A DNA stretch of 64,000 nt from contig VGPU01000001.1 of NCBI GenBank assembly GCA_016882525.1, positions 77,378 to 141,377 of the forward strand. The letters are read 5' to 3'. The number at the start of each line of letters is the position of its first letter. The first letter of the stretch is position 1. The translations under genes were made by a program, and so were the position numbers. Origin of the DNA: Cyanobacteria bacterium M_surface_10_m2_119 (GTDB lineage: Bacteria; Cyanobacteriota; Cyanobacteriia; PCC-6307; Cyanobiaceae). This document shows, in pieces, positions 5,743-17,087 of the stretch. The notes beneath the pieces are model-generated. The model saw only the letters and a list, made by a program, of their open reading frames with translations, had not been told where the DNA came from and did no database searches.

Positions 5743-6671
5743 GCGACGGAGTGCGGCGGAACCGATTCCGGACGCAGGTTGCGCCCCATCAAGGCTCGGC
5801 TGGCCTCCAGCGGACTCCTGCGCGCCTCGATCACCTCCACCACCTGCTCACAGATGGGCAACGACCATCCCTCGCGCAGGGCCAGCGCCACGGCTGCGGA
5901 GGCCGTGCGCAGGCCTTCGACCGTCGCATCGATGCGACGCAGGGCCTCCACCGCCGGGCAGCCCTCCGCCAGCAGGAGGCCGCAGCGGTAGTTGCGGCTG
6001 AGGGGGCTGGTGGCGGTGGCGAGCAGGTCCCCCAGCCCGGCCAGGCCGTAGAGCGTGGAGGGGCAGCCGCCAAGACCCTGGAGCACCACCCCCATCTCGG
6101 CCAGCCCGCGGGTGAGCAGGGAAGCACGGGCATTGGCACCGAGTTGCAGGCCATCGCACAGGCCGGCAGCCAGGGCCATCACGTTTTTCAGCGCGCCCGC
6201 CACCTCCGTGCCGATGGGATCACTGTTGGTGTACAGGCGAAGGGTTTCTCCACTCAGTTCGCCCTGCAGACGGGCGGCCAGACCAGGATCCGCACTCGCG
6301 ATCACGCTGGCGGCCGGCAATCCGCTTGCGAGTTCGCTCGCCAGGTTCGGCCCGCTGAGCACGGCCATGGGGGTGAGGAGCTGCTGCTCCCAGAGCTGGG
6401 TGGCGCTCAGCAGCCGCTTGGGGTCGATGCCCTTGGTGCAGCTCAGCAGGGGCAGGGCCTCAGGCCAGTGGGGAGCCAGCTGCACCGCTAGGGGCTTCAC
6501 GCCGGCCATGGCAACGGCCGCCACCGCCAGATCACAATCCCCGAGCAGGGCGGCTGGATCTCCCCCCTCGCGGCGGGTCCAGCTGCGCAGCTGGTGCCCC
6601 TGCCGCTGCCAGAGCTCCAGCAGGGTGGTGCCCCAGGCGCCTCGGCCGAACAGGGCAATCCGCAGGGGCAT
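5739..6671 (-). CDS. gpsA: NAD(P)H-dependent glycerol-3-phosphate dehydrogenase
   Basis: 310 aa. It has an N-terminal Rossmann motif (IALFGRGAWGTTL) and GpsA core motifs (SGPNLASE, TEVAGALKNVMALAAG, GLGDLLATATSPLSRN). Confidence 0.9.
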   Translation of the reverse strand: MPLRIALFGRGAWGTTLLELWQRQGHQLRSWTRREGGDPAALLGDCDLAVAAVAMAGVKPLAVQLAPHWPEALPLLSCTKGIDPKRLLSATQLWEQQLLTPMAVLSGPNLASELASGLPAASVIASADPGLAARLQGELSGETLRLYTNSDPIGTEVAGALKNVMALAAGLCDGLQLGANARASLLTRGLAEMGVVLQGLGGCPSTLYGLAGLGDLLATATSPLSRNYRCGLLLAEGCPAVEALRRIDATVEGLRTASAAVALALREGWSLPICEQVVEVIEARRSPLEASRALMGRNLRPESVPPHSVA

Positions 6672-6729
6672 CGGCCAGGCGCCTCAGCAGAACTGACTGC
6701 CATCATGCGCCAGACCTGCACCGCTGCCG

Positions 6730-7512
6730 GTGTCCGGATCCATCACACCGGCGTCCCCCTCCCCGCCATGGGCTGGTGGGCCCCTGCGTGAATGGCAGGG
6801 TCGGGCCCTGGTGGTCGGGGGCGGCGGCATCGGTCGGGCCCTTGTGGCTGATCTGGCTGAGCGGGCCCCCGCACTCGAGCTGGTGATGACCTCGCGGTCA
6901 CCGCAGCCCCCCGACCTGGCGACACGCGTCCGGGTGCTCGCTGTCGACCTGGCCACCGACCAGAGCCTCCTAGGCCTGCGGGAATCACTGACTGGGGGGG
7001 CACCCCTGCGGCTGGTGGTGTGCTGCGCGGGTCTGCTGCACGCTCCTGATCTCCAGCCGGAGAAGCGGCTGGCCCAGGTGCGGCGATCTGCGCTCGAGCG
7101 CTCGTTTGCCGTGAATGCCTTCGGCCCTCTGCTGCTGGCCCAGGCTCTCGAGCCGTTGCTCCCCCGAGACCTCCCCTTCCATTTCGCCAGCCTGTCCGCC
7201 CGGGTGGGGAGCATCGGCGATAACCGCCTCGGCGGCTGGTATGCCTACCGGGCCGCCAAGGCGGCCCAGAACCAGCTGCTCCACACCCTGGCCCTGGAAT
7301 GGCGCCGCAGGCTGCCCCTGGCCTGCGTCAGCCTGATGCACCCCGGCACCACCGCCACGTCCCTGTCAGGCCCGTTTCAGGGGTCGGTACCACCAGAGCG
7401 GTTGTTCAGCCCCCGGCGGGCGGCCAGCCAGCTGCTGGATGTGCTGGAGCGACTCACCCCCGAGCAGAGCGGTCAGTTCTGGGCCTGGGACGGGCAACCC
7501 ATCCCCTGGTGA
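6730..7512 (+). CDS. Short-chain dehydrogenase/reductase (C-factor-like SDR)
   Basis: 260 aa. It has the glycine-rich motif ALVVGGGGIGRAL, NAFGPLLL, and the catalytic YAYRAAKAA (YxxxK). It has a GTG start and is divergent from gpsA. Confidence 0.75.
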   Translation: MSGSITPASPSPPWAGGPLREWQGRALVVGGGGIGRALVADLAERAPALELVMTSRSPQPPDLATRVRVLAVDLATDQSLLGLRESLTGGAPLRLVVCCAGLLHAPDLQPEKRLAQVRRSALERSFAVNAFGPLLLAQALEPLLPRDLPFHFASLSARVGSIGDNRLGGWYAYRAAKAAQNQLLHTLALEWRRRLPLACVSLMHPGTTATSLSGPFQGSVPPERLFSPRRAASQLLDVLERLTPEQSGQFWAWDGQPIPW

Positions 7513-7519
7513 GCCCGTC

Positions 7520-7915
7520 TCAGGCTGCGTGTTGGCGCAGAAGGTCCAGGGAAATCACCTCCAGGGTTCCCAGGGCCGTCGCGGTCAGACGCACGGGGGG
7601 TGCCATGCCGTCCTCGTAGGCCTCCAGCCAACGCGGCGCACAGACGCACCAGTGGTCCCCGGGCCGGAGCCCGGGGAAGCCGTACTGGGGAGCAGGGGTG
7701 CTCAGGTCGTTGCCCTGGGCCCGGCTGTAGCTCAGGAAGGCCTCGTTGACGACGCAGCAGACGGTGTGCCGCCCCAGATCACTGGGATGGCTCTGGCAGT
7801 AACCATCACGGAACCAACCGGTGAGCGGGGCACAGCTGCAGAGCTCGAGGGGCTCCCCAAGCACGTTCAGGGCGCTCTCTGCTGCGGAAGGATTGCTGGG
7901 GTTGGGGGAGGTCAT
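7520..7915 (-). CDS. DUF2237 family protein
   Basis: The start is taken at the ATG of residue 14 (MTSPNPS...). The conserved Cys-rich text is LELCSCAPLTGWFRDGYC ... HTVCCVVNEAFL ... GDHWCVCAPRW. Confidence 0.65.
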   Translation of the reverse strand: MTSPNPSNPSAAESALNVLGEPLELCSCAPLTGWFRDGYCQSHPSDLGRHTVCCVVNEAFLSYSRAQGNDLSTPAPQYGFPGLRPGDHWCVCAPRWLEAYEDGMAPPVRLTATALGTLEVISLDLLRQHAA

Positions 7916-8068
7916 CGGTGCGGTCTGGATGGGCAATCGGCACGGCCAGGCCAACGGCAGGTTCAGCGGTCAGCCCGGGAAAACTGGCCCAGGTGGTTGA
8001 CGGATTGCGGGGGTGAGGCATTAGAGGTCGGTGACGCGTTACATCCGTCGTTCTGCGCGCCCCCCTTC

Positions 8069-8296
8069 ATGAGCTGGGAATTCACCGAAGATGCGGCCTT
8101 TCTGGCCCTCTGTGACGCCTACAAGGAGAGCGGTGAACCCTCCGCCATGGAGTTCCTTGCCCACGGGGAAGGGGCCTTCCATTTCCAGGAGCTCACCCAG
8201 AACGCCGCCGGTGAGGGCATCGATCTGAGTGATTCCTCCGATCTGGAGGAATTCCAGCAGGAAGTGATCGACGCCCTTGAGGACCTCTGCAGCTGA
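8069..8296 (+). CDS. Small acidic hypothetical protein (75 aa)
   Basis: It begins at an internal ATG of the long shadow ORF 7439..8296: MSWEFTEDAAFLALCDAYKESGEPSAMEFLAHGEG...EEFQQEVIDALEDLCS. The amino-acid composition is realistic and GC3-biased, unlike the Arg/Gly/Ala-rich upstream part of the ORF. Confidence 0.45.
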   Translation: MSWEFTEDAAFLALCDAYKESGEPSAMEFLAHGEGAFHFQELTQNAAGEGIDLSDSSDLEEFQQEVIDALEDLCS

Positions 8297-8303
8297 GTTG
8301 GCC

Positions 8304-8576
8304 TCAGCCGTAGAAGAAGGCGACCTCCTTGGGTTTGAGGCCGTCCCAACCCGCGGCCTGCAGGCGCGCATCGAGCGTGGCCTGGTCCAAGTGCTTCGAA
8401 CCGGTCTTGACGATGCGGTTGCGCATGGACTTCTTCACCCCACTGCGAGCGCGCTGGGCCTCAAGGTCCATCACCTCGTTGTAGAGGGCCAGCATTTCAG
8501 CCGGGATCGGCGTGCCGTCGAGGTCAAAACCTGCCTTGATCGCCGCATCCACGCCGTCGGGACCTGCAATTGCCAT
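8304..8576 (-). CDS. Conserved hypothetical protein (90 aa)
   Basis: MAIAGPDGVDAAIKAGFDLDGTPIPAEMLALYNEVMDLEAQRARSGVKKSMRNRIVKTGSKHLDQATL... The composition is balanced and Lys-containing, which is unusual for a shadow ORF at this GC content. The overlapping plus-strand ORF looks like a shadow. Confidence 0.55.
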   Translation of the reverse strand: MAIAGPDGVDAAIKAGFDLDGTPIPAEMLALYNEVMDLEAQRARSGVKKSMRNRIVKTGSKHLDQATLDARLQAAGWDGLKPKEVAFFYG

Positions 8577-8634
8577 GGGGTCTTGGATCGATGCCAGCCC
8601 AGGCTAGGGCTGGGGCCCTGGGGGCTGGTGCCAA

Positions 8635-11600
8635 TCAGGCACTGAAGTAGCGGGCCTTGCTGTGGAGCGCCACTAGGGCCGTGGTGCTCTGCTCGGGATG
8701 AAGCTGCTCGCTGTCATCCATGCTCAGCCCGATGCGCTCGGCGCCCAGCCAGGCCAGCTGCTGGCGGGAATCACCGACGTTGGGGCAGGCCGGGTAGCCG
8801 AAGGAGTACCGGCTGCCGCGGTAACGCTGGGCCAGCACGTCCCGCAGGGGCATGGTGGCGGGATCAGGGTGCCCGAGCTCCGCGCGGATGCGGGCGTGGG
8901 TCCACTCGGCCAGCGCCTCAGCCATCTGAACGGCCAGACCGTGGAAATAGAGGTAATCGGTGTACTGGTCAGCGGCGAAGAGCTGCTGGGCATAGCGGGA
9001 GGCCTGCTCCCCCATGGTCACTGCCTGCATGGGCAGGACATCCCCTGCGCAGGCCGATCCACCGGCGTCGACCTGGAGGTCGCGGTAGAAGTCGGCAATG
9101 CAATAGCGGTTGCCGGCCCGCTGGCGAGGAAGCAAGAACCGGCCCAGCTCGGGCCCCGCTGCCGCCGCTGGCGCACCCTGGGCCATGCCCTCGGGATCGA
9201 ACACCACGACGGCGTTCCCGACCCGTCCGCAGGGGAAATAGCCGTAGGCCACCCGGGGTTGGAGCAGTTGCTCCTGCAGGCAGCGCTCCATCCACTCCTG
9301 AAGCACAGGCTCGGCCTTCTCGACCAGCATGGCCTCGTAGTCGGAACGCGACTGCTGCTGGCCCTTGCGCAGCTGCCACTGGCCCGCGAACAGGGCATTG
9401 CGGTCGAGGTAAGCGAACACCTCAGCCAGGTCGATGTCGGCCTCCGTGAGCACCCGGCTCCCCCAGAACGGAGGCATCAGGACCGGCTCCTCTGGCACAG
9501 CCTCGGAGCGGCTGTCGTTCGGGCCAGGAGTGACGGCCTCTCCACCGGCATGGGCTGGAGTGTCAGCCGTGGGGGCTGCCTCCTCCTCCCGGGGGCTCGG
9601 ACCATCGTGATTCTCACCATCGCCTGGCTCGGCCAGCCCCAGTCCTTCGGGAGCACCTTTGAGGAAACCGCGCCCGTCATCCCAGGTACCGGCTGCTTTC
9701 GCCTCCATCAGGGCATCCATGAACCGCAGGTCGGCGAAGGCATCGCGCCCATAGATCACCTGGCCTTTGTAGGCGGCACGGCAATCCCCGTTCACGAAGC
9801 GAGGGGTGAGAGCTGCACCGCCGAGAATCACCGGTACGGCGATGCCGGCGTCATTAAAGGCCTCCAGGTTGTCCTTCATGAAGGCCGTGGACTTCACCAG
9901 CAGCCCGCTCATGGCGATGCAGTCGGCCTGGTGCTGCTGCTGAGCCTCGATGATCGCCTCGCAGCTCTGTTTGATGCCCAGGTTGATCACCTCATAGCCG
10001 TTGTTGGTGAGGATGATGTCAACCAGGTTCTTGCCGATGTCGTGCACATCGCCCTTCACCGTGGCGATCAGAAACTTGCCCTTGGCCGAGCTCTCGCCCT
10101 CCACTTTTTCCATGTGGGGCTCCAGATGGGCAACGGCGGTCTTCATCGTCTCGGCGCTCTGCAGAACGAAGGGCAGCTGCATCTGGCCACTGCCGAACAG
10201 TTCTCCCACCACCTTCATGCCATCGAGCAGGAAGGTGTTGATGATCTGCAGGGGGGGATAGCTCTGCAGCGCCTCATCGAGTGCGGGCTCAAGGCCGATG
10301 CGCTCGCCATCAATGATGTGCTGCTTGAGCCGTTCTTCGATCGGCAGATCGGCGAGGGATGGTCCCGAAGCGCGGGCTTCCTTGGCGCTGACCCCTTCAA
10401 ACAGGGTGGTGAGAGCAGTGAGTGGGTCGTAGGTGCAGATCGCCCCCGGTTGATCACTCTCAAAGCGGCGCCGGTCGTAGATCAGATCCAGACACACTTG
10501 CTGGTGCTCGTCGCTGATCTTGGCCAGCGGCAGGATCTTGGCCGGGCTCACAATGGCAGCATCCATGCCTGCCTGACAGCACTCATGCAGGAACACGGAG
10601 TTGAGCACAATCCGAGCGGCAGGGGAGAGGCCGAAGCTCACGTTGCTCACACCCAGCACCACATGCACGCCGGGTAGACGCTCACGGATCATGCGGATCG
10701 ACTCGACCGTGGCGGCGCCGTTGTTGCGATCCTCCTCGATGCCGGTGGAGATTGGTAGGGCGAGGGGGTCGTAGAAGAGCTCGTGGGCCGGAATCCCGAA
10801 TTCGAGGGCATCGCGGTAGGCCCGCTGGGCGATCTCGAATTTCTTCGCGGCCGTGCGGGCCATCCCCTCCTCATCAATGGTGCCGATCACCACGCCGGCG
10901 CCGTAATCCCTGGCCAGTTCCAGCACCTTGAAGAAGCGCTCAGGGCCATCCTCGTAGTTGGTGGAATTAAGCAGGCACTTGCCGCCTGCCACCTTGAGGC
11001 CGGCCTCCATTTTCTGCCACTCGGTGGAGTCGAGCATCAGCGGCAGGTTCACGTTGGTAACCAGACGGCTCACCAGCTCCCGCATGTCGCGCTCGCCATC
11101 GCGACCGACGTAGTCGACGTTGACGTCGAGCACGTGGGCGTTCTCCTTCACTTGGCCGCGGGCCACGGCCACCAGCCCGTCCCAGTCCTCCTCGGCCAGA
11201 AGCTCCCGCACCTTCTTGCTGCCGCTGGCATTGAGCCGCTCGCCGATAATCAGGAAGGAGTTGTCCTGCAGATAGGGAGTGGTGCCGTAGATCGAGGCAG
11301 CGGCAGGCTCCACCTGGAGCAGTGGACGCTCATGCTGGCTCTGGGGGGTCCGTACCGGACGCGATGCCGCCTTCAGGTCGCGCGCCAGTTCCACGAGCGC
11401 GCCGATATGGGCGGGCGTGGTGCCGCAGCAGCCGCCGATCACCTGCACCCCCAGGTCTTCGACGAAGTGCATCAGCTGCATCTTCATCTCCACCGGCGTC
11501 AGCCGGTAGTGGGCCACGCCGCCGATGTTCTCCGGCAGACCGGCGTTGGGGATGCAGCTCACCACGAACGGGCTGTGCTCGCTCAGGTAGCGGATGTGCT

Positions 11601-12354
11601 CCTTCATCTGCTCCGGCCCGGTGGCACAGTTCAGGCCGAGCACGTCGATCGGGAACGGTTCGAGGATCGCCACCACGGCGGCGATGTCGCTGCCCACCAG
11701 CATCGTGCCGGTGATCTCCATCGTCACGCTCACCATCAGGGGGCGGCGCTGGCCGGTCTTGGCGAAAGCCGCCTCAATTCCCTGCAGCGCCGCCTTGATC
11801 TGCAGCACGTCCTGGCAGGTCTCAACGATGAAGAGATCGACATCGCCGGCGATCAATCCCTCCGCCTGCTCGGCGAAGGAGGCCTTCATCGTGTCGAAAT
11901 CAATGTGGCCGAGGGAGGGCAGCTTGGTGGTGGGCCCCATCGAGCCGGCCACGAAGCGGGGCTTCTCGGGGGTGGAGTAGGCATCGGCCATCTCGCGGGC
12001 CAGCTCAGCGGCGCGCTTGTTGATGGCGAAGGCCTGGTCCTGCAGGTCGTATTCCGCCAGCACGATCGACGCCGCGCCGAAAGTGTCGGTCTCGATCACA
12101 TCAGCGCCCACCTCCAGGAACTGGCGGGCGACCTCCTGCACAGCATCGGGGCGCGTGAACACCAGGTTCTCGTTGCACCCCTCCAGGGCCGGGCCACCGA
12201 AATCCTCGGCGGTGAGGTTCATCTGCTGCAGCGAGGTGCCCGTGGCGCCATCGAAGACCAGCACCGGCCGCCCAGGGTTGTGCAGCCGCTCGAGAAAGCC
12301 GACCCGCTGGCTGGTCGCCAGCGCCTCTTGAACCCCGGAGCTTGCCACCACCAT
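8635..12354 (-). CDS. metH: Cobalamin-dependent methionine synthase
   Basis: 1239 aa. It contains the Hcy-binding, pterin-binding, B12-binding ([11 protein letters not shown]) and AdoMet-activation modules in the canonical order. Its start overlaps the ilvE stop by 1 nt (TGATG). Confidence 0.95.
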
Positions 12355-13271
12355 CAGCCGTCGATGCGCACGCGTGTCACCCAGTGGTCATAGGCGGAAT
12401 CACGGCCCTCCGTGATCGCCGTCAGGCGCTCGCGGATCCGCTCCATCACAGGCCGCGCTGCGGGCAGATCGGTGCTCTCCACCCGACGCACCGGCGTCAC
12501 CTTGGCAGCGGTGCCGCTGAGGAACACCTCGTCGGCCACAAACAGCTCGCTCTTGTCGACCGCCCGCTCGATCACCTCGATGCCCATCGCCTTGGCCAGT
12601 TCGATCACGCTGGCGCGGGTGATGCCCTCGAGGATGTCCTGATCCACACCCGGGGTGATCAGCGCCCCATCCCGCACGATGAACAGGTTCATGCCGCTGG
12701 CCTCGCTCACCTTGCCGCGGCTGTTCAGGAGCAGGGCTTCATCGAAACCGCTCTTCACCGCCTCGGTCTTGGCCAGGGAGCTGGTGATGTAGGCGCCGCT
12801 GATCTTGCCGCGCAGGGGGAGGGAGCGGTCCTCCTGGCGGGTCCAGGAGCTGATGCGACAGCTCACCCCTTCGGGGGAGAGGTAGTCGCCCAGCTCGAGG
12901 CCGTAGATGAGAAAGTCGGTTTCGATGTTGTGCAGCCGCGGGGCAATTCCCAGGTCGCTGGTGTAGACGAAGGGCCGCAGGTACACCGGACAGGTCGGTT
13001 TGTTGGCCTTCAGGAAGGCGGCAATGGCGTCGTGGATCGTCGCCTCCGGCAGCTCGGTCAGCAGCAACCGCGCGCTCTGGCTCAGGCGGCGGGCGTGGCG
13101 ATCGGCCCGGAACAGCAGGATCTCGGCTGCATCACTGGGGTTGGGCAGGGCCCGCATGCCCCCGAAGGCGCCGGTGCCGTAGTGCAGAGCATGGGTGGCC
13201 ACGGACAGGGTGGCCTCCGCGAAGGGCACGCACTTGCCACCGAACCAGGCGTAGGGGAGGAACTGGTGCAT
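12354..13271 (-). CDS. ilvE: Branched-chain amino acid aminotransferase
   Basis: 305 aa. It shows class IV aminotransferase text throughout ([47 protein letters not shown]). Confidence 0.92.
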
Positions 13272-13339: not shown

Positions 13340-16300
13340 ATGCACAGGCTGGCGGCGATCCCGGGAGCGGCGGACGAAGGTTCGGCCGCCTTCATCGAGC
13401 AGGCACCGGCCCCGGTGCTGCTCCTCACCAGCGCCGACACCGACCTGCTGGTGCTGGAGGCCCTGCTCGAGGCGGAACCCCAGCTGCTGGGTGCTGAACT
13501 GCGGGGATTGAACCTGGCAGCCCTCGCCCACCCGGCGGTGGTGGATCACTATCTGGCAACCACGGCCCAGACGGCGCAACTGGTTGTGGTCCGGCTGCTG
13601 GGCGGGCGGGGCCACTGGAGTTACGGCCTGGAACGCCTGTGCCATTGGGCTGATGCAGGGTCTGGCCGCCAGCTGTTGGTGCTGGCCGGCACGTCAGAGG
13701 AGGAACGAACGCTGGCGGAACTGGGTACGGGTGATCCGTTGCTTGCGGTGGGCCTGGCCCGCTGCCTGCGGGAGGGGGGACCGGCCAATGGCCGGATGGT
13801 GCTGGGGGCTCTGGGTGGCCTGCTCAGGGGGGAGTCAGTCGATCCCCCGGTGCCCCTGCCCCTCGCCGATCCCCTCCCCCACGACTGGCGCCGGGACGCC
13901 GGTGAGCGCATCGGCGTGATCGCCTATCGGGCCCTGTGGCAGGCAGGCGACCTGGCGCTGATGGAAGATCTGCTGGCCCGCCTGCGCGAGCGGGGGCTCT
14001 GCCCCCGGGCCCTGTGGGTGAGCAGCCTGCGCGAAGGCGCCGTGCAGCGCGGTGTGCAGCAGCTGTTGGCGCGGGAACGGGTGCAGGCGGTGCTGTGCTG
14101 CACCTCCTTCGCCTCCGTGCAGTTTGCGGAGGCGAGCCTGGGGGCGCCCCTCTGGGAGGCCCTCGATGTGCCGGTGCTGCAGCTCCTCAGCAGCAGCCAG
14201 CCCCGGCAGCGCTGGCAGGCCAGCAGCATCGGCCTCTCCCCCACCGACCTCACCTTGCAGGTGGCCCTGCCGGAGCTCGACGGCCGGATCACCACCCGGA
14301 TCGGCGCCTTCAAGGAGTGCGTGGGGGCAGGGGAGAACCTGGGGGCCGCCCTCCAGCGTTACCGCCCCGATGGCGAGCGGCTCGGGTGGGTGTGCGAGCT
14401 GGCTGCCAATTGGATCAGCCTGCGCCGCACTCCGGCCGCCGAGCGGCGGGTGGCCCTGGTTCTGGCCAATTACCCCACCCGCAACAGCCGGCTGGCCAAC
14501 GGGGTGGGGCTGGACACCCCCGCTTCGGCGGCAGCGATGCTGCAGTGGCTCCAGGTCGGGGGCTATGGCGTGGTCGGTCCCCTGCCGGCCGACGGCCAGG
14601 CCCTGATCGAGGCCTTGCTGGCCGGCCGCACCAACGATCCGGAGAGCGGCCACCGCGCCGCCCTCGACCACCTTCCCCTGGCCAGCTACCAGGCCTGGTA
14701 TCAGCAGCTGCCCGCAGAGGGTCGCGAGCGCCTGGAGGCGGTGTGGGGAGCACCGGAGCATGATGGCGGCCTCGAGACCCTGGCCGATGGCGGGCGGGGA
14801 TTTGCGGTGTTCGGCCTGTGCTTCGGCCATGTCTGCCTGCTGGTGCAGCCCGAGCGGGGCTACGACCGCGATCCGAGCCTCAGCTATCACTCGCCCGATC
14901 TGCCCCCCACCCACGCCTATCTGGCCCAGTACCTCTGGTTGCGCCAGCACTTCGGCGCCCAGGCCGTTGTGCATGTCGGCAAGCACGGAAATCTCGAGTG
15001 GCTGCCTGGCAAAGGGCTGGGGCTCTCCCCGGCCTGCTTCCCGGAGTGGGCCCTGGGCCCCATGCCACATCTTTACCCCTTCATCGTCAACGATCCGGGA
15101 GAGGGCTCCCAGGCGAAGCGCCGTAGCCAGGCCGTGATCCTCGACCACCTCCCCCCCCCCCCCCCCCCTGGGACGGGCCGGTCTGCACGGCGACCTGCAG
15201 CAGCTGGAGGCCCTCCTCGATGAGTACTGGGAGGCCTGCCAGGTGGGCAGCCATGAACGGGCCTCCCTGCTGCGTCGCCAGCTCGATCAGCGGCTGGCCG
15301 CCCTGGAGCTGCCCCATGGCAGCTCCGCTGATCTGGAGGCCCGGCTGGAGGCTGCTGATGGCTACCTCTGCGAGCTGAAGGAAGCCCAGATTCGGCTTGG
15401 GTTGCACCGTTATGGACAGCTGCCGGAGCCGGACGAGCTGGCGGAACTGCTGGCCTGCCTGGCGCGTGCTCCGCAGGCGGGCCTGCCCGGGCTCACCCAG
15501 GCCCTCGGCCGCGATCAAGGGCTGGAGCTCGACCCCTGGGCTGACCCGGAAGAACAACCCCTGAGCACGGCTGATCAGCAAGCTCTCGCACCCGCCCGGC
15601 GGGTGGGGGATGGCGTCGTGCAGCTTGAGCGCCAGGCGCTGGATCTCTGCCGTTGGGCCCTGGCGGGGGGGGGCGAGCAGCCGTCGGCTCCACCAATGGC
15701 AATTGGCCCCCACACGGCGCCGGTGCTGGAGCATCTGCAGCGGGTGCTGCTGCCACGGCTGCTGGCCTGCGGTGAGCAGGAGCAACTGGCCTTCCTGGCG
15801 GGTCTGGATGGCCGCCGGATTGCCGCCGGTCCCTCCGGGGCTCCCACCCGCGGCCGGCCCGATCTGCTGCCGACCGGTCGCAACTTCTACTCGGTGGACC
15901 TGCGTGGCCTGCCCACGGAAGCCGCCTGGGACCTCGGCCGCCGCAGCGCCGGGCTGCTGCTGGAGCTGCACCTGCTGGAGGAAGGGGAGCACCTGCAGAG
16001 CCTTGCCCTGTCGGTGTGGGGGACAAGCACGATGCGCAACGGTGGCGAGGACATCGCCCAGGCCCTGGCGCTCTTGGGGGTGCGGCCGGTGTGGGATGGC
16101 CCCACCCGCCGGCTGGTGGACCTGGAGGTGGTGCCTCTGCCGCTGCTGGGCCGGCCGCGGGTGGATGTGACCCTGCGCATCTCGGGGCTGTTCCGCGACG
16201 CCTTTCCCCAGCTGGTGGCCTGGATGAACCGGGCCACGGCTCTGGTGGCCGCCCTCGATGAGCCGGAGGCCGAGAACCCGCTGGCGGCAGCGGCCCGGCG

Positions 16301-17087
16301 CGAGGGCACGGCGGCCCGGGTGTACGGCTCGGCACCGGGGGCCTACGGCGCCGGTCTGCAGGGGTTGATCGACAGCGGCCACTGGGAAAACCGCGGCGAT
16401 CTGGGCGAGGCCTTCCTCAGCTGGAGCAGCTGGCGCTACGGCGCTGCCGAGGGCGCGAGCGAGACAGGGGGTGGCCTCGGCGGCGGCCCAGGGGGCGGCG
16501 CTATCGAGGCAATGGCCGATCGACAGGGTCTCGAGCAGCGGCTCCGCGCGGTGCAGGTGGTGCTGCACAACCAGGACAACCGCGAGCACGACCTGCTCGA
16601 TTCAGACGACTACTACCAGTTCCAGGGGGGGCTGAGCGCTGCCGCCGAAACCCTCCAGGGCCAGGCCCCGGCGGCCTGGTTCGGTGACCATTCCCGCGCC
16701 GCCCGGCCCCGGTTGCACCGGCTGGAGAAGGAGTTCGACAAGGTGCTGCGCTCCCGTCTGCTCAATCCCCGCTGGATCGAGGGCATGCGTCAGCACGGCT
16801 ACAAGGGGGGGTTCGAGATGGCCGCCAGCCTCGACTATCTGTTCGCCTACGACGCGAGCACGGGGCGCGTGCCCGACTGGAGCTACGGCGCCGTTGCCGA
16901 TCGCTGGCTGGGCGACCCTGCGGTGCGGGGATTTCTGGAGGGGGCCAATCCCTGGGCCCTGCGGGACATGGCTGAGCGCCTGCTCGAGGCCCACCATCGG
17001 GGCCTCTGGAGCAACGCCACTGAGCAGCAGTTGCAAGACCTGCGGCACCTGGTGCTCGAGGCAGAGGGGCTCGTCGAGCAGCGCTGA
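13340..17087 (+). pseudogene. cobN: Cobaltochelatase large subunit CobN, split into two frames by an 18-C homopolymer
   Basis: The N-terminal half is 13340..15223 (MHRLAAIPG... to ...QAVILDHLPPPPPPGTGRSARR*). The C-terminal half continues in another frame that is open from 15138 (...LGRAGLHGDLQQLEALLDEYWEACQVGSHERASLLRRQLDQ... to 17087). Together they give a full-length CobN of about 1250 aa. The family motif DHL-x-PP-L-x-RAGL spans the break. Confidence 0.9.
15151..15168. repeat. Poly-C (C18) homopolymer inside cobN
   Basis: A direct count gives cacct + 18 C + tggga. The count agrees with three track frames: + LDHLPPPPPPGTG, - SQGGGGGGGGRGS, and the GTG start of the - ORF at 15148. Confidence 0.95.

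Follow-up and report, generated by a model that had tools for sequence, protein, structure and literature searches.

The cobN gene in the window, a 64,000-nucleotide stretch of the Lake Tanganyika MAG Cyanobacteria bacterium M_surface_10_m2_119 (sample M_surface_10, IMG Ga0194123), is broken into two reading frames by a run of 18 cytosines. Comparison with other assemblies of the same lake population suggests that it is most likely an intact, ordinary cobaltochelatase gene, and that the C18 length and the frameshift arose artificially, in Illumina sequencing or in assembly, at a spot prone to errors. A biological frameshift in cobN is most likely not a real feature of this organism. The sequence at the site is not reproduced between assemblies, the changes seen there lie on one side of the tract and are biased to G or C, and the other assemblies are in frame; from these observations we infer an error mechanism acting at the level of the reads.

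The C run occupies exactly positions 15151 to 15168 (cacct + C18 + tggga on the plus strand; in wider context, 5' to 3', GATCCTCGACCACCT + C18 + TGGGACGGGCC, and with shorter flank strings ATCCTCGACCACCT-C18-TGGGACGG). It is the longest homopolymer in the window by a factor of two, the second being a G9 at 15665-15673 and the next four being runs of 8, and since only ~6e-4 C or G runs of at least 18 nt would be expected in the window by arithmetic from its composition (C = 0.346), C18 is not a chance feature of the contig. The 5' frame of cobN opens with an ATG at 13340, reads ...QAVILDHLPPPPPPGTGRSARRPAAAGGPPR* and stops at 15223, and the 3' part lies in the +1 frame, reads ...PPPPPLGRAGLHGDLQQLEALLDEYWEA... 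and extends to 17087. IMG calls the 5' fragment as a 627-aa protein (P0180; 13340-15223, plus strand), whose last 16 residues are out of frame before the stop. The 3' part (15168-17087, plus strand) begins at the Leu codon CTG of LGRAGL and is called from a GTG at 15243 as a 614-aa protein (P0181). An uninterrupted cobN frame is absent from the deposited sequence, which yields these two products split at 15151-15168. With one C deleted, translation from the ATG at 13340 yields 1248 aa, a protein that matches the CobN model TIGR02257 with 1593 bits (cut-off 822), passing the equivalog cut-off and covering model positions 1-1225 of 1226, and no second lesion was found in the 3.7 kb of the window cobN. 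The sequence, the two frames and the stop at 15223 bear out the initial annotation, which had described an 18-nt poly-C tract splitting cobN and had placed the next-longest homopolymers at about 9-10 nt. Its statement that 17 or 20 C would rejoin the frames is correct, as would be 8, 11 or 14, but the in-frame state encountered here is C11 (DHL-PPP-L) and not C17 or C20.

Exact matches to six neighbouring proteins put the window on a contig of 191,980 bp in the M_surface_10_m2_119 MAG. In the Lake Tanganyika project, 24 samples were run on the HiSeq 2500 (2x150) and went one by one through assembly with metaSPAdes 3.12 (PMC8245535), so that every JGI contig from another sample shows the same lake community through a separate library and a separate assembly. 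Exact matches to ilvE and to the 180-aa gene downstream of cobN served as anchors for sibling loci, and 16 loci were retrieved. Four JGI loci from other Tanganyika samples (L083, L086, L087 and L088) match the window at 99.77-99.86% identity across 6.5-12.9 kb and therefore represent its population. The tract site is covered by L083, L087 and L088 and by a further JGI contig, L093, L086 stopping inside cobN at 14283; all of the same-population assemblies come from one project and one platform, and none is an error-free reference for this population.

The total length at the site is that of the 11-nt version in all four site-covering siblings, and the additional 7 nt are found in the window only. 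L087 (Ga0194119) reads GACCACCT followed by a clean C11 and is in frame with DHLPPPL, and the window (Ga0194123) reads the same GACCACCT followed by C18, +7 nt and frameshifted; this pair, 18 versus 11, is the only case among the five assemblies of a tract-length difference with otherwise identical flanks, and no intermediate length between C11 and C18 was seen among them. Variation in the other siblings consists of flank substitutions toward C or G and not of stepwise length change. L088 (= L092, Ga0194118) carries C11 together with T15141C, which turns ILDHL into IPDHL in a cobN called at 1246 aa. L083 (= L090, Ga0194130) has the same length as the C11 version and is in frame, but carries six substitutions (GT>TG, T>C, T>C, A>C, T>C) that lengthen the run to C17 and convert AVILDHLTPP to AWTPDPPPPP in a cobN that is nevertheless called intact at 1246 aa. 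L093 (Ga0194122) carries five substitutions that make a C14 run at the in-frame length, its contig ending 31 nt upstream of the TGGG flank. The window and its four sibling libraries accordingly show five different sequences within ~35 nt at the tract, and over the remaining 6-13 kb the assemblies differ by scattered SNPs only, many of them common to several samples; away from the tract, the window cobN differs from L087 and L088 by 2-3 SNPs. The source contig is the only one on record for either frameshift product, P0180 (627 aa) or P0181 (614 aa), and seven other members of the 90% CobN cluster are 1246 aa long.

About ten SNPs in the region 6376-12331 (for example 6376, 6489, 6685, 9658, 10498 and 10534) are common to L083 and L086 and absent from the window, indicating that at least two ~99.8%-identical haplotypes coexist in the lake. 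Contigs from other samples also end inside cobN, namely L093 (~15131, exactly at the tract), L086 (14283), L087 (16639) and also L091, and in sample 3300020220 cobN is divided between two contigs. Such breaks would fit strain heterogeneity in cobN as well as problems of coverage or error there.

The substitutions at the site are clustered and directional. All 12 flank substitutions in L083, L088 and L093 relative to L087 fall at 15132-15150, on the 5' side of the tract on the plus strand, 11 of the 12 introduce G or C, and the 3' side of the tract is free of them in all three assemblies. The affected segment (15132-15150, plus strand) codes for the invariant A-V-I-L-D-H-L and is intact in the window but altered in three sibling assemblies. 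Read on the minus strand, the site runs through the G run, A, GGT, GGT and CGAGGA, and the affected bases are the next to be read after the G run. It is a known Illumina error that the base directly after a homopolymer is replaced by the homopolymer base, and GGT is the trimer most associated with errors, most strongly on the HiSeq 2500 (PMC8002175, Stoler & Nekrutenko 2021). Because L083 and L088 wreck a motif that is invariant in ~200 homologues, they cannot be functional alleles fixed in a sample, and errors therefore demonstrably reach the assembly consensus at this site. Given that, the lone length variant is most economically a product of the same problem, and the features expected of an artefact are present both in its absence from the independent same-population assemblies (+7 in none of the four siblings) and in the bias of the flank differences toward the homopolymer base. 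Illumina errors are mostly substitutions, however, and a clean +7 insertion with a perfect flank is an atypical Illumina error that counts against an artefact.

The artefact could have arisen as follows. The Leu-Thr-Pro-Pro-Leu codons (CTC ACA CCC CCC CTG in the nearest relatives) are C-rich to begin with, and in the Lake Tanganyika population they most likely read CTC CCC CCC CCC CTG, a genuine C11 with Thr replaced by Pro. The minus strand would then present G11 followed by A-GGT-GGT-CGAGGA, at which HiSeq 2500 reads may over-call the homopolymer base and mis-read GGT. Such error-laden reads could give a different consensus in each per-sample metaSPAdes assembly, the outcome for sample M_surface_10 presumably being the seven extra C. 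Other origins were considered and rejected. A diversity-generating retroelement does not fit changes that are not adenine-specific and that fall in an invariant enzyme motif; a chimeric contig join does not fit two tract flanks that are contiguous cobN; and a poly-G read-tail artefact does not fit a sequencing platform with 4-colour chemistry.

Relatives have a shorter segment at this site. Homologous CobN protein fragments retrieved with a 243-aa query region (120 fragments, all shorter than 430 aa, the near-identical 1246-aa CobN cluster not being among them) show the motif in 119 of 120 cases, the great majority as DHL-T-P-P-L/M-x-R-A and a few with T replaced by I, M, V or L; Pro at the Thr position, or an insertion, occurs in none. 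A genome survey of 80 loci, with one genome per species, gave 78 that are readable at the motif, and all 78 are in frame, 76 with DHL-TPP-L/M and two with DHL-IPP-M, in line with the DHL-x-PP-L-x-RAGL family motif given in the initial annotation. The closest of these loci (Cyanobium sp. CACIAM 14, Synechococcus sp. UW140, Aphanothece stagnina and 'Microcystis elabens' FACHB-917; 78-83% amino acid identity) read GACCACCT-CACCCCGCCCC-TGGG, that is, 11 nt where the window has 18. Relatives carry CACACCCCCCC or CACCCCGCCCC in place of C18, so that the window differs from the family by +7 nt and by C in place of the interrupting A and G. Much closer copies, of which ENA, Logan and NCBI (GCA_036728425.1) supplied five with 94.8-97.8% identity, share the reading CTC ACA CCC CCC CTG, encoding DHLTPPL with a C7, and P0179, a sixth member of the 90% protein cluster, has DHLTPPL too. 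Every sibling and relative has a segment of 11 nt in the place of the tract, which in the window exceeds it by 7 nt, and this comparison supports the earlier proposal of a two-Pro ancestral state and an expanded tract. A long tract is not maintained in related strains, the 95-98% relatives having a C7 interrupted by A and the 78 distant loci runs of at most 9. That maximum of C9 occurs in frame in two loci, L022 and L069, which belong to unrelated filamentous cyanobacteria (a Leptolyngbya MAG and an Elainellaceae MAG) and read ACC CCC CCC CT at the Thr-Pro-Pro-Leu codons; the CobN motif site drifts toward poly-C in GC-rich genomes with its frame unbroken.

Two in-frame states, C11 and ACA-C7, have to be weighed as the true sequence in the Tanganyika population. 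At the two positions that are A in the 95-98% relatives, each of the five Tanganyika assemblies has C, and hence Pro for the near-universal Thr of the CobN DHL-T-PP motif (15151-15161), a replacement found in none of ~200 other homologues. The siblings agree throughout on the other G7-G9 runs of the compared region, including G7 + TT at 16805-16811 and the G9 at 15665-15673. The latter sits within cobN, codes for part of AGGGEQ and is the same in all sibling assemblies, indicating that the same data handled run lengths up to 9 correctly. With C in all five assemblies and the other G7-G9 runs free of error, C11 is likelier than a systematic double miscall at G7-T-G-T; the alternative that ACA-C7 is the true state, miscalled to C at both positions, is less likely, as every assembly has C at both and the G7+TT site in cobN is error-free. 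We regard a genuine C11 run, with Thr replaced by Pro, as probable in this population, if well short of certain. If genuine, it would be an unusual core-motif substitution that itself creates the C11 run, and a true C11 would also explain why there is an error hot spot at the tract and nowhere else. Being slippage-prone in vivo, a genuine C11 would be expected to bring some real length heterogeneity.

This last expectation leads to the alternative that the tract is hypermutable, a poly-C of at least 11 nt in cobN of which C18 is a true OFF allele dominating the 10-m Mahale sample, in effect a phase-variable switch. G/C runs of such length slip at high rates in bacteria, as at contingency loci, and an intragenic homopolymer of at least ~8 nt that sets the frame is present here (C18 in the window and, in the cleanest of the siblings, C11). 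That the run is real and at least C11 long is also suggested by the C in five of five Tanganyika assemblies where relatives have A, given the stability of the other G7-G9 runs, and the flank in the window is clean, as that of a true length variant would be. Against this, the length differs in only one of five assemblies, by +7 and without intermediates, the other variation at the site consists of substitutions to C or G that wreck the invariant DHL motif and so is error, the frameshifted product occurs on a single contig, and relatives have no comparable tract (maximum C9 among 78 loci, in frame). We consider such a hypermutable tract unlikely, though it carries more weight than the other biological accounts, and it is slightly less probable still in the fuller version whereby a genuine poly-C of at least 11 nt in the DHL-TPP catalytic core of CobN slips, subpopulations switch pseudocobalamin synthesis off, and C18 is a real OFF allele that came to dominate a single surface sample. 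The phase-variable switch raised by the initial annotation finds no support in a frameshift that stands on one contig beside four siblings at the in-frame length, and of its four unranked readings it is the first, sequencing or assembly error, that the irreproducibility across sibling assemblies favours.

Genuine loss of cobN, as a plain pseudogene in the strain behind the MAG, would account for the frameshift standing in the deposited contig and for the lack of an NCBI protein between MBM5823842 and MBM5823843. A stably lost gene sits poorly, however, with the lack of any further lesion in 3.7 kb, with 99.8% identity to intact sibling copies, with the B12-dependent metH kept next door and with in-frame siblings from the same lake, and the intact copies and missing second lesion make this reading, too, improbable. 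Programmed recoding, in which a slipping RNA polymerase, or ribosomes shifting to +1 on CCC-C, would produce full-length CobN from C18, has in its favour that the shift needed is a single nucleotide and that long homopolymers are known to promote transcriptional slippage, as do the poly-A tracts of endosymbiont genes. Yet none of the nine siblings and near relatives, and none of the 78 distant loci, has the out-of-frame arrangement, and there is no sign of selection keeping it; in addition, a poly-Pro insert of varying length would come at a cost in the catalytic-core motif that contains the site. Transcriptional slippage or EF-P-dependent +1 frameshifting as a means of rescue, as had been suggested, is accordingly unsupported, and recoding is the most remote of the readings considered here by a clear step.

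On its upstream side, the start of cobN is adjoined by ilvE and metH, confirming the earlier placement of metH upstream of cobN. The branched-chain amino acid transaminase gene ilvE (MBM5823842.1) lies at 12354-13271 on the minus strand, its identity confirmed by Pfam matches on sibling loci, and metH, encoding a 1239-aa B12-dependent methionine synthase, lies at 8635-12354 on the minus strand, with PF02574, PF00809, PF02607, PF02310 and PF02965 matched on the sibling gene. The metH start overlaps the ilvE stop by 1 nt (12354, minus strand), an arrangement shared by all sibling loci (locus coordinate 6918), and this one-base overlap suggests translational coupling of the aminotransferase and the B12-dependent methionine synthase. 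The accessions of ilvE (MBM5823842) and of the gene just past cobN (MBM5823843) are consecutive, which implies that NCBI issued no CobN protein and that cobN is presumably annotated as disrupted.

Were the frameshift real, it would represent a slippage switch of B12 synthesis in an abundant lake picocyanobacterium, with a bearing on the cobalamin supply of the plankton, and a truly slipping tract would put a vitamin pathway of a free-living cyanobacterium under a contingency-type switch. With an artefact as the preferred reading, the value of the case is cautionary: per-sample assemblies of the same population allow a test, even without reads, of a MAG "pseudogene" at a G/C homopolymer, and B12 auxotrophy inferred from the disrupted cobN of the M_surface_10_m2_119 MAG would probably be wrong.

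Among known systems, the gene itself corresponds to the CobN large subunit of aerobic cobaltochelatase (TIGR02257, PF02514), with a full-length match after frame repair and DHL-x-PP-L at the tract. Phase-variable poly-G/C contingency loci are known from Neisseria, Haemophilus, Campylobacter and Helicobacter, and cobN shares with them an intragenic G/C homopolymer whose length decides the frame. Those loci, however, show one- or two-base stepwise polymorphism with identical flanks, lie in surface or restriction-modification genes and have tracts conserved across strains, whereas cobN shows one length variant, erroneous flank substitutions, a housekeeping cofactor function and no such tract in relatives. 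Transcriptional slippage at homopolymers reportedly rescues frameshifted endosymbiont genes, as Tamas et al. are said to have found in 2008, and the likeness to that system lies in a long coding-region homopolymer with a one-nucleotide frame defect; the endosymbiont tracts are poly-A and occur in many genes of AT-rich reduced genomes, in contrast to the single poly-C here, which is not reproduced in siblings. The site also resembles the Illumina errors associated with homopolymers and GGT, sequence-specific errors of that platform having reportedly been described by Nakamura et al. in 2011. As there, the errors at cobN follow directly on the G run as it is read, the homopolymer base is what is wrongly called, GGT motifs and the HiSeq 2500 are involved, and the outcome varies between independent libraries; the window differs in gaining 7 nt without substitutions, which would need an added, putative contribution from the assembler.
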